Assembly (NCBI GenBank): GCA_019058245.1
Contig: JAHPZJ010000009.1
Location: forward strand, 1-31,273
From: Promethearchaeota archaeon
GTDB taxonomy: Archaea > Asgardarchaeota > Lokiarchaeia > Sigyniarchaeales > SOKP01
DNA: 31,273 bases
Reading direction: 5' to 3'
Within the stretch, counting starts at the first letter, position 1. Each line of letters begins with the position of its first letter. Below the pieces are notes generated by a model. The model was not told the DNA's origin. It worked only from the letters and a program-made list of their open reading frames with translations, and made no database searches. Below, in pieces: positions 3,571-29,008 of the stretch. Both the position numbers and the translations under genes were made by a program.

Positions 3571-4218
3571 TTATTCATCAGATTTCAATCGCTTCAATTC
3601 TTTTTCCAACTCTGCAATTTTCTCATCAGACGCCCCAGAAGCTGCACTTGGCAAAGCCACACCCATTTCTACTTGAATTTCAGCATCAATTTCTCCTAAA
3701 ACATCACTTACATCTGAATCAGTAACTGCTGTATCAATACTAATACTATCCATACCTTCTGTCGCAATGTCTGCTGTTACAGCAAAATCTTCCATATCCA
3801 TATCGATTTGGCTCATAATTTGAGTCATCTGTGGTACGGAAAGCTGAGTTTTTAAAGTCGATAGAGATTGGGCAATCCCTGTCATTATTTGTGATACATC
3901 TTTAACTGCAGTTGCTTGCTCCAATTTAAATTGTAATCCTTCTAAATTCGTTCGAAATTGTTCTATTGCTCTTGCTTGTTTTTTAACTTGAAGATAATTG
4001 CGTGCTTGAAATTTTGAACCATCTAAATCCCCCTGCTTTCTTAAATTTACGGCTTTATCTCTTGCGAGTTTTGCACTCATTTCTAATTTTTTTGTCTGTC
4101 TCATCAATCTTTTATTAAAGACTTTTAATTTAACTGAAGCAGAACGAATATTGTCTTTCCCTCTCTTACCACCTGAAAGCCATTTTGAGATATCTTTCAG
4201 AAAACCCATAATCATCAA
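3571..4218 (-). CDS. ESCRT-III subunit, Vps2/Vps24/Vps46 class (Snf7 domain)
   Basis: Basic helical N-half (KLARDKAVNLRKQGD..ARNYLQVKKQ), acidic C-half, C-terminal MIM1-like helix ELEKELKRLK; divergent from Vps4. Confidence 0.9.
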   Translation of the reverse strand: MMIMGFLKDISKWLSGGKRGKDNIRSASVKLKVFNKRLMRQTKKLEMSAKLARDKAVNLRKQGDLDGSKFQARNYLQVKKQARAIEQFRTNLEGLQFKLEQATAVKDVSQIMTGIAQSLSTLKTQLSVPQMTQIMSQIDMDMEDFAVTADIATEGMDSISIDTAVTDSDVSDVLGEIDAEIQVEMGVALPSAASGASDEKIAELEKELKRLKSDE

Positions 4219-26362: not shown

Positions 26363-27802
26363 ATGAATACTAATATCAAATTCGCTTTCTTAACTGTTTT
26401 AATTGTTGTGATTCAGTCTATTTTAAAGGTAATTGGTGTCTTAATTACAGGAAGTTTAAGTTTTCTTTCTGAGACAGTGGATACTCTTATTGATATATTA
26501 TTTGTCTCTATTTCTTTATATTCTATATATCATAGTGAAAAGCCTGCTGATTATGAACATATGTATGGTCATAAAAAGATTGATTCTATAGGGGCTTTAA
26601 TTCAAGGAATTATTTTAATGAATGTATATATCTTATTAATCTATAATGCGATTCAAGTTATTATTCAACAAAGTTTTCTAATTACTAATCCTGAAACAGG
26701 ATTAATAATTTTAATAATTTCATTTTCAATAAATATAATATTCTCCAGAATCCTTATTTATAAAGGTAAACAGAGAAAAAGTCTAACTTTAAAAATACAG
26801 GGTTTAAATTTATTTCAAGATTCATTAAGAGCTCTCTTAGTAATATTCAGTTTTATTATTGCATCTTTTAATGTTTTTTTTATTGATCCCATCTTAAGTA
26901 TTGTTTTATCTGTTTGGATCATCACTGGAGCTGTAAAGTTGACTAGAGAAGGTACCAGAGAACTTACTGATACTAATCCTGTAAATATTATAATTTTAGA
27001 AAATTTACGACAAAAAATTTTTCAGTTAGAGCATGTTGTGGGGATTCATGATATAAAAATCCGAACAAGTGGTAAATCATTATTCCTAGAAGTATACTTA
27101 TCAGTTGAAGATCATATTTCCATTGTACATGCAAACGAAATCATCAAATCTGTAAGAAATATGAGTGAGAAGGTGTTTTCCTCATATGAAGTTGAATGCA
27201 TCATTGAAATGAATCCTATGGCTAGCGAAAAATCTATTGGCGAGGGATTAATTAATTTAATTTTTTCTATGAAATCGGAATACCCAAGAATCGAAGTTGT
27301 TAAAGATCTTAATGTATTTAGAATTAAAAATGAATATTTCCTGTCTTTAGTTTTAATAGTTGATGAAACACTTTCACTTGCAGAAGCTCATAAGTTAGCG
27401 TCTCTTTTTGAGGATGAGATAAAAAAACAATCTCCTCTTATATCTAGAATCATAACCCATATTGAAGGTCAAGCTCACACTGAAATTTCAATACATGATC
27501 ATATTAAATGTGCGGATGTAGGTCCAGAAATGATACAGCAAATAAGTGAAAATGTGGAAGAAGTGTTAAGAGTTCATTCTTATGTTAGAGGTTATCATGG
27601 ATTAGAATTTTGGGCAACAACGGATTATTGTATTCTAGAACTTCATATTTTTTTTGAGGGATCATTAAATATTTCACAAACCCATGAATACATTTCTGAA
27701 TTGGAAGTCATTATTAGAGCAAAACTAGGCATTGATAATTTAGACGCGATACTTCTTCATTCAGAACCAATAGAAGATCAGAAGGATGGTATCTTCTTTT
27801 GA
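26363..27802 (+). CDS. Cation diffusion facilitator transporter with three tandem cytoplasmic (ZT_dimer-like) domains
   Basis: About 6 TM, GS.S..E.VD..D, KPAD.EH.YGH.K; three repeats of S/N-I/L..A/T-H/N...H/E.E/N. Confidence 0.85.
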   Translation: MNTNIKFAFLTVLIVVIQSILKVIGVLITGSLSFLSETVDTLIDILFVSISLYSIYHSEKPADYEHMYGHKKIDSIGALIQGIILMNVYILLIYNAIQVIIQQSFLITNPETGLIILIISFSINIIFSRILIYKGKQRKSLTLKIQGLNLFQDSLRALLVIFSFIIASFNVFFIDPILSIVLSVWIITGAVKLTREGTRELTDTNPVNIIILENLRQKIFQLEHVVGIHDIKIRTSGKSLFLEVYLSVEDHISIVHANEIIKSVRNMSEKVFSSYEVECIIEMNPMASEKSIGEGLINLIFSMKSEYPRIEVVKDLNVFRIKNEYFLSLVLIVDETLSLAEAHKLASLFEDEIKKQSPLISRIITHIEGQAHTEISIHDHIKCADVGPEMIQQISENVEEVLRVHSYVRGYHGLEFWATTDYCILELHIFFEGSLNISQTHEYISELEVIIRAKLGIDNLDAILLHSEPIEDQKDGIFF

Positions 27803-27903
27803 GAAACTGAAATCTTCAAAATAAATATATATACACATAGTATCCAAGCTCTAAAAAGAATCTTTTATTAAAAATTAACTATTCTATTGAACTAAAATTT
27901 TTA

Positions 27904-27930
27904 AATATCATAATAGATATATATGATATT
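27904..27930. promoter_or_regulatory. Inverted repeat AATATCATA-N9-TATGATATT directly 5' of the structured element
   Basis: Perfect 9-bp arms at 27904-27912 and 27922-27930; AT-rich, so chance cannot be excluded. Confidence 0.35.
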
Positions 27931-28088
27931 GGCATAAATTTTCATGAATAAATTAAAAATACTAAATATGGCTCCTGTCAATCCCCTGGATTTTTGTCTT
28001 TTGGTTGTGTAAGAGATTACACATTAAAATTACCTACTCTACCTTTTAAAAGTTTATGCCTTATATTAAGGCTTTTTGGCAGGAGCTA
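27931..28088 (+). ncRNA. Candidate structured non-coding RNA of unknown family
   Basis: Helices 27931-42/28049-60 and 27969-81/28076-88, hairpins TGTGTAA-GAGA-TTACACA and GCCTTA-TAT-TAAGGC; non-Watson-Crick positions are G-U on the + strand. Confidence 0.5.
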
Positions 28089-28162
28089 CTCTTAATAACA
28101 CTGCAGCTTAATTTTGATAAATAGAGAGATGATAAAATCTCTCAAAAAAAAAAATAATATCT

Positions 28163-29008
28163 CTAAAGTAAAAGAAATAATTCTAATAAGAATGTATCTA
28201 AATTCAAATCCTTGAATAATTTCATATTATTAAAAAGATAGGCATAAATTTTTTCCTCACTAAAATATTTAAAACACGCATTTTTCCCTTTTTCTTCTTT
28301 CAGAATATTGATAATATCCGATAGAATAGTTTTTAAATTTTTAAAGACTAAATCCGTATCACTTTTAATTATATTGATATCTTTAATATTGAACCAGGAT
28401 TCTTTACTGAAAGTAATATTTTTTAACTCTGGTTTATTCCTGAAATCTTTTTGGTTTTTTAAAGTTTTAAATTTTTTTTCTATTTTATTAAGTATTATGC
28501 TTTTTGATTTAGAATACATTTTTTTTTCTATAACATTTCTTAACATAATTAAAATCTTTTGAAAAATACCTAAAATATCAAAAAAATCTGCCATTTGGGC
28601 TAAATTTTCCACTTCTCCCCACTGATCATAATAATCTTCTATTTCATTAAGAAATGGGAGAAAAATATTGATATCTCCATCCCAATTATGACCTTTTTTT
28701 TCCCAAACAGGAGTAAATTCTTTTACAAAAGCATTTTTAATAACATTTAATCTCCCTAAAAGAATCTCAGTTTTTATATGTTTTGTATCAGCAGCAACGA
28801 ACAGTAATTTCAACTTTTCTTCTAGTATATAAACCCATCTTAAACCCCCCATTTCTATAGAATCCAATGATTCTTTAAACTCAACCATAGAAAAATGGTG
28901 AAAAGCCGTTAAAAAACCAGAAACAATATCTTCATCTGCATCTGTTTTCAAAAAGGATCTATATAATAATTTAACTCCAGATTCTGCATCTAATATCCAA
29001 ATTATCAT
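28163..29008 (-). CDS. Longin-like (profilin/roadblock-related fold) N-terminal domain plus helical C-terminal domain, Asgard-type
   Basis: IWILDAESG..L.Y, D.D.VSGFLTAF..F, ESLDSIEMG, LLFV.AD, L..I...F...F pattern. Confidence 0.7.
   Translation of the reverse strand: MIIWILDAESGVKLLYRSFLKTDADEDIVSGFLTAFHHFSMVEFKESLDSIEMGGLRWVYILEEKLKLLFVAADTKHIKTEILLGRLNVIKNAFVKEFTPVWEKKGHNWDGDINIFLPFLNEIEDYYDQWGEVENLAQMADFFDILGIFQKILIMLRNVIEKKMYSKSKSIILNKIEKKFKTLKNQKDFRNKPELKNITFSKESWFNIKDINIIKSDTDLVFKNLKTILSDIINILKEEKGKNACFKYFSEEKIYAYLFNNMKLFKDLNLDTFLLELFLLL

Follow-up and report, generated by a model that had tools for sequence, protein, structure and literature searches.

Between two convergent genes of a 31,273-nt stretch of lokiarchaeal DNA (contig JAHPZJ010000009.1; hereafter the window) lies an intergenic element that raises a simple question: is it an RNA gene and, if so, what does its RNA do? 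An initial annotation, made from the sequence alone, had proposed a ~160-nt non-coding RNA or RNA switch with two crossing long-range helices, A/A' and B/B'. Its CDF label for the upstream gene was confirmed; this gene is absent beside several orthologous copies of the element. The 'longin' label given to the downstream gene found no Pfam or NCBIfam match. The features of the locus are the following:

26363..27802 (+): CDF cation-efflux gene, neighbour
27890..27907 (+): probable promoter, with a BRE-like purine run and a TATA-like box (TTTAAATA at 27900-07)
27931..27942 (+): segment A, where a ~40-nt leader probably begins; pairs better with A' in the window copy
27969..27981 (+): 5' strand of P1 (B), supported by covariation; G27970 is +1 of the family
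27984..28004 (+): invariant single-stranded core with two U4 tracts, from column conservation and motif counts
27989-96 (+): Sm-site-like GAUUUUUG inside the core, from motif counts
28006..28023 (+): P2 hairpin, 7 bp, loop not conserved; two-sided change in 7/7 pairs
28024..28057 (+): unpaired pyrimidine-rich linker, the 3' end of which is A' (28049-60)
28058..28072 (+): P3 hairpin, 6 bp, with GCC overlapping A'; two-sided change in 6/6 pairs
28076..28088 (+): 3' strand of P1 (B'), from pairing and covariation
28088..28093 (+): 3' tail, family consensus (U/A)CC(C/U)UUU, probable 3' end or terminator
28163..29008 (-): 281-aa gene, always found next to the orthologous copy (29 loci) but not related to the other ones

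All the pairings that had been described are present in the window copy. A and A' (27931-42 and 28049-60) form 12 bp with one G-U pair, B and B' (27969-81 and 28076-88) form 13 bp with two, and the hairpin at 28006-23, the pyrimidine tract at 28031-47 and the hairpin at 28058-72, which has its GCC in common with A', are found as well. The element proved real, but the conserved RNA is shorter than ~160 nt and corresponds to the ~120 nt from B to B' (27969-28088). Folding against shuffled controls gave MFE z-scores of -2.47 on the plus strand and -1.93 on the minus strand, which is modest for a lone sequence, and 15 of 60 shuffled versions of the intergenic region around the element also contained a helix of at least 13 bp. 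The window sequence alone is modest evidence; the comparative data are decisive. An exact second copy of segment A, located at 28242-28253 (+) within the 281-aa gene on the opposite strand, is probably a chance occurrence in AT-rich DNA.

Distribution of the element

BLAST matches were obtained in 60 of 101 related genomes and were centred on 27964-28086, that is, on the stretch from B to B'. Covariance models also recovered the element in relatives, detecting it in every genome of the window's family (25/25, 22/22 and 31/31) with 1 to 7 copies each; the window genome carries another full copy on contig C31. Searching GTDB with the exact 21-nt core returned at least 119 stretches, nearly all of Loki type. 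The sister family carries a subtype with the core UUAUUUUGUCUUUUUGGAUG and an extra hairpin in 11 of 14 genomes, and its single-contig genomes of 4,324,194 bp and 6,035,313 bp have 4 and 3 full copies, respectively. No convincing match was obtained in the other Asgard families searched, where the element was not found rather than being absent.

A wider distribution suggested by NCBI titles (Hermod, Hod, Thor, Odin, Patescibacteria) was rejected, the contigs being identical or close to the Loki family. The titles of L031, L045, L050, L063, L065 and L072 (Hermod-, Hod-, Thor- or Odinarchaeota) look unreliable: their DNA matches the window's Loki family, and L063 equals L005. A weak match in another class (G127) was discarded as well; it falls within an ORF, in antisense orientation, and shows no conservation. 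Some loci are unusual in other respects. A core-only partial copy (L171:16118-16189 (-), genome G012) lies 13 kb from a full copy, with an RVT_1 reverse transcriptase gene (L171:12842-13891 (-)) and RadA downstream; the region is possibly an integrated element. At the very end of a 224.8-kb IMG/VR contig, a copy in which the 3' arm of P1 is damaged or missing (L150:35-146 (-)) adjoins an HNH endonuclease gene, and could be an attachment site or virus-borne. On L093, filed under a Patescibacteria MAG, two full copies (668-797 and 3648-3767 (+)) alternate with two ~620-aa TPR genes; this is probably a mis-binned contig with a tandem duplication.

Rfam gave no match for the window, and the window together with five homologous loci gave chance hits only. 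ARAGORN found no tRNA at the element, and the earlier statement that it is not a tRNA, 5S, SRP or RNase P RNA holds. It would resemble the archaeal C/D and H/ACA sRNAs, SRP RNA, RNase P RNA and tRNA in being a stable, structured and independently transcribed archaeal ncRNA. We found no description of this RNA in the literature searched, and no Asgard-specific structured ncRNA family in that literature or in Rfam 15. It is an undescribed ncRNA family of two Loki families, outside all the known classes with which we compared it. As to expression, the copies of genome G079 are covered by contigs from a single study (four RNA runs), the data being unstranded and possibly derived from DNA; two of these runs show no cover just upstream of the copies, and holes or depths of such contigs prove nothing.

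Fold, strand and genomic setting

P1 (B/B'), P2 and P3 all covary. In a plain MAFFT alignment, unfitted to any model, two-sided changes were observed in 23 of 24 pairs and 87.6% of cells were paired, as compared to 34-51% in slid controls; model-fitted alignments, which are biased by the fitting, gave 24/24 compensatory pairs and 92-94% pairing. The sister-family subtype, folded independently, adopts the same fold, with compensatory changes in 18 of 29 pairs. The argument for a plus-strand RNA, drawn initially from the few G-U pairs of the window copy, is upheld at the family level: 146 G-U pairs against 30 A-C combinations on the plus strand indicate a plus-strand RNA. Among orthologues the RNA is 85% identical, versus 62% and 54% in its flanks. 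The GNRA tetraloop noted in P2 of the window copy is not a feature of the family, since the loops of orthologues read TTAT, TTCG, TTTA, GAAA and GTAA. Natural deletions have left only the 3' half of one copy (L024:217-284), removed P2 from others (L019, L023, L105) and P3 from a further set (L156-L158); because some copies lack P2 or P3, P1 and the core would constitute the minimal unit. We are close to certain that selection acts on the element and that it is a genuine structured RNA, and the proposal of a novel Asgard ncRNA stands in the form of a plus-strand structured RNA of Loki archaea.

Copies reside at several old, syntenic and vertically inherited loci with unrelated neighbours, and synteny is kept across genera. 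They share no common neighbour gene and no conserved ORF, and a single one of the 172 overlaps a long ORF. All four orientations of the flanking genes occur, the downstream gene being co-oriented in 84 cases and convergent in 59. Such features characterise a family of free-standing RNA genes rather than a MITE, a riboswitch or a peptide gene.

Multicopy occurrence with target-site duplications had been named as the mark of a MITE. The first was found, and a non-autonomous DNA element with B/B' as terminal inverted repeats, or a site acting at the DNA level, could also be suspected from the partial copies, one beside a reverse transcriptase gene and one ending a viral contig. However, target-site duplications of at least 3 nt accompany 0 of 172 copies, only 1-7 copies are present per genome, and the G-U strand bias, the covariation of the internal hairpins and the synteny across genera all speak against this possibility, which is already largely refuted and to which we attach almost no weight.

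The commonest paralogue (44 loci; L151:1501-1631 (+), that is, G000:C31:2484-2614) is followed, ~260-370 nt downstream, by a Tes-like radical SAM gene in the same orientation, which we take to be tetraether-lipid synthase-like, in 43 of 44 loci and across genera. This position and the existence of mutually exclusive helices would fit a cis-acting leader or attenuator of the downstream gene. For the family such a role is very improbable: neighbours are unrelated, copies do not keep a constant position 5' of co-oriented related genes, and many of them, including the window copy, have a convergent downstream gene, on which ground the initial annotation had already seen no attenuator here. The ligand-sensing switch that it had also considered is not supported, given that all four gene orientations occur around copies. 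A self-cleaving ribozyme or a small-peptide gene is more improbable still. An ATG often directly precedes P1, which gives the window copy a 14-codon ORF, and conserved single-stranded nucleotides could be catalytic; however, ORFs run into the core in each of the three frames in some copies and not at all in others (56/25/27/41 copies), the core is invariant at all codon positions and almost all U, and no Rfam ribozyme matches the window or the five homologous loci. A small-ORF reading (frames LDFCLL, PGFLSFG, WIFVFW) was abandoned, the frame not being conserved.

The U-rich core and its leader

The most conserved part of the RNA, which had not been flagged initially, is the unpaired core AUUUUUGUCUUUUGG. 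Indeed, across 103 copies the stems turn over but UUUUGUCUUUUGG hardly changes, an invariance inflated by the fact that more than half of the copies were collected by exact core match; in copies found by BLAST or model searches, the core varies at its edges only. The core shows no covariation and is predicted to be unpaired apart from a weak 4-bp hairpin. It has the form U4-5 GUC U4-5, with RAUUUNUG in 165 and UUUGUCU in 171 of 172 copies; the final purine of the strict Sm consensus PuAUUUNUGPu is found in 0 of 172, and the core of the sister family reads UAUUUUG. C hardly ever takes the place of a core U, although occasional U-to-C changes would be expected if these positions paired with G's in a target; this suggests recognition by a protein rather than target pairing.

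Target pairing would be the role of a guide RNA, with the invariant core base-paired to a conserved RNA such as 16S rRNA (near 715-734), where an 18-bp duplex of -24.5 kcal/mol can be drawn. But 2-3 of 40 shuffles equal this duplex, which leans on many G-U pairs never improved to G-C, and the sister-family core loses the CCUGG half while the 16S site is unchanged. Moreover, the RNA has no C/D or H/ACA boxes: box C (RUGAUGA) occurs in 0 of 172 copies and ACA after P1 in 3 of 172, and rRNA duplexes are near the shuffle level. We consider a guide function quite improbable.

A protein known to read such sequences is the termination factor aCPSF1 (FttA), which requires at minimum a pair of U4 tracts in a stretch of at least 18 nt; its Loki orthologue reads U-tracts (PMC8716108). 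The core columns do contain two U4 tracts in this arrangement. The RNA could then act as a decoy or regulator of aCPSF1, presenting a double U4 tract on a stable scaffold while its leader decides between premature cleavage and full-length RNA. The exact U4-5 GUC U4-5 form of the core, the aCPSF1 KH domain gene in the genome and the multicopy paralogues, which are typical of sponge RNAs such as CsrB/RsmYZ, are all consistent with this idea. However, aCPSF1 needs U-tracts, not a fixed GUC spacer with flanking G's, and it is universal in archaea whereas the RNA is limited to two families, making a decoy unlikely. The protein-sponge RNAs CsrB, RsmY and RsmZ, encoded by several paralogous free-standing genes, do resemble the Loki RNA in carrying conserved single-stranded motifs on variable stems, but these motifs are GGA loops rather than U-tracts, and a CsrA system is not expected in the host.

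Most orthologues with segment A in register have a TATA box that starts 31 nt before A, and the distance from A to P1 in these same orthologues varies from 31 to 54 nt. The fixed spacing on one side and the variable distance on the other suggest that A is probably the 5' end of the leader. A generic initiator or BRE was rejected for segment A, which shows no genome-wide peak. The A/A' pairing is kept in most orthologues of the window copy, with one compensatory position, and is largely confined to that orthologous group, so that it does not qualify as a universal helix. Judged by complementarity, the core is the more general partner of A across the family: the motif G(A/G)C(A/G)3AAU, which is the G-U-tolerant complement of the core, also precedes paralogues without A'. 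Leader motifs complementary to the core were found in 45 of 166 leaders versus 3 downstream windows (7 expected), and the perfect 9/9 complement in 38 of 164 leaders versus 1 of 164 downstream windows, counts that include related copies and are not independent. The motif is present in 20% of RNA leaders against 0.9% of gene upstream regions and falls mostly 28-38 nt after the TATA box (31/44, versus 17% in the control). About a quarter of copies have it, and about a third of these belong to one orthologous group; an AUAGG leader occurs in other copies, and 34 of 42 such leaders are complementary to the linker.

When growing transcripts are folded, A pairs first with the core (in orthologues) or with A' (in the window copy) and is displaced once P3 and P1 form; for the window copy, the predicted energies are -14.1 kcal/mol for A with A' and -6.4 kcal/mol for A with the core. 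The crossing helices had been read as a pseudoknot or as two alternative folds. Folding of growing transcripts favours transient alternative helices over a stable pseudoknot, which is less supported, and a 9-bp AU-rich pseudoknot may form. A/A' appears to be a short-lived helix of the leader, which gives way to P3 and P1 during transcription.

A putative Sm/Lsm small RNP

The best explanation, which we put forward with a little less than even confidence and from sequence features, is that the free-standing small RNA binds an Sm/Lsm ring through its core and so forms a small RNP. In the snRNP code, an Sm site is defined together with a 3' stem-loop (PMC12117405); here, the single-stranded core is followed ~9 nt later by P2. 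Transcription would start near segment A and, during synthesis, the leader would pair with the U-tract core and, in the window copy, also with A', hiding the two U4 tracts from the termination nuclease aCPSF1 or from too-early protein binding. P3 and P1 would then form and displace the leader, which might be trimmed at G27970. A U-specific protein would bind the exposed core, which a stem-loop follows as in the snRNP code; the likeliest candidate is a ring formed by the Sm/Lsm (SmAP) paralogues of the cell. The outcome would be a stable small RNP with the variable C/U-rich linker as an effector or guide surface.

The window genome has four LSm-domain genes, three of them with the N and RG pocket residues. 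A divergent Sm paralogue (L323:1151-1459 (-), G000:C20) is 88-94% identical across the genera of the window's family (62% in one) and ~40% identical to all other Asgard Sm proteins; we regard it as a candidate partner of the RNA. Several points stand against the Sm reading: the final purine is absent, only about one copy in four has the leader motif, and Sm genes occur throughout the Asgard archaea, with 2-3 paralogues in most genomes and a count that does not track the RNA, whereas the RNA itself was found in two families only. Moreover, the literature describes archaeal SmAP rings as pre-formed and of the Lsm type (PMC12117405); to occupy a site within a closed multiloop, such a ring would have to bind through its face or be assembled on the RNA.

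The likeness to the Sm-class snRNAs (U1/U2/U4/U5; U7) resides in an internal single-stranded RAUUUUUG followed by a stem-loop and, as proposed here, in a precursor structure that masks the site, as human pre-snRNAs do (PMC10584915). U7 snRNA (AAUUUGUCUAG) and the Loki RNA have UUUGUCU and a pyrimidine-rich single-stranded segment in common. Unlike these snRNAs, the Loki RNA lacks the final purine, its ends are closed by a long stem, and its host is a prokaryote without a known Sm-type heteroheptamer, its Sm binding being putative. The window and five homologous loci have no Rfam match to U1-U12. By analogy, the RNA may work like an Sm-class RNA while being a homologue of no snRNA.

An SmAP partner would also be required, as an Hfq-like chaperone, by a trans-acting antisense sRNA similar to cuckoo/CcsR, whose C-rich linker would pair with Shine-Dalgarno sequences. 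The linker is CCUCC-rich in paralogues, and some subtypes have an extra hairpin inserted in it; CCUCCUCCC occurs in 54 and CCUCC in 74 of 172 linkers, and G-rich Shine-Dalgarno motifs are enriched before genes in the window genome. The CCUCCUCCC motif defines the multicopy, Hfq-bound cuckoo sRNAs (PMC4615179). The Loki RNA thus resembles the cuckoo/RSs0680 (CcsR) sRNAs of Alphaproteobacteria in being multicopy, in carrying this motif in about a third of copies and in its putative Sm-family partner (Hfq in cuckoo sRNAs). In cuckoo sRNAs, however, the motif is repeated in 2-4 hairpin loops, whereas the Loki RNA has it once, in a multiloop linker, and no such series of hairpins; it is missing from the window copy and the sister-family subtype, and the invariant part of the Loki RNA is U-rich. 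Linker pairing with translation-start regions was no better than that of shuffled linkers or pairing with coding DNA, with no Shine-Dalgarno preference, and no long genomic complement was found. We hold an antisense function to be as unlikely as the aCPSF1 decoy.

Y RNAs and vault RNAs are similar to the Loki RNA in their ~100-130 nt, paired ends, large pyrimidine-rich loop and U-rich 3' tail; unlike Y RNAs, it shows no conserved bulged-C Ro site, and it has no Rfam match. TROVE/Ro60 was found in 0 of 6 genomes tested, three of them single-contig, and a vault domain in 1 of 5, as a major-vault-protein repeat at G079:C1:3073492-3073611 (-) of a 6.0-Mb genome.

A bolder form of the Sm/Lsm reading, which we hold to be doubtful, is that Lokiarchaea make a dedicated Sm-class RNP. 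Its stable RNA, with an internal Sm site and a stem-loop, would be masked as long as it is a precursor and would then receive a heteromeric SmAP ring; the particle would be a prokaryotic parallel or forerunner of the snRNP core predating the spliceosome. The literature searched yielded no native Asgard Sm substrate, and the family provides a concrete 120-nt candidate. It bears on a question of spliceosome origins, namely how archaeal Lsm rings, which are pre-formed, turned into Sm cores assembled on RNA; its range of two Loki families among the Asgard groups searched argues for a Loki innovation rather than a direct snRNA ancestor. Should the RNA be an aCPSF1 decoy or an antisense sRNA instead, it would still represent a new layer of riboregulation in Asgard archaea.
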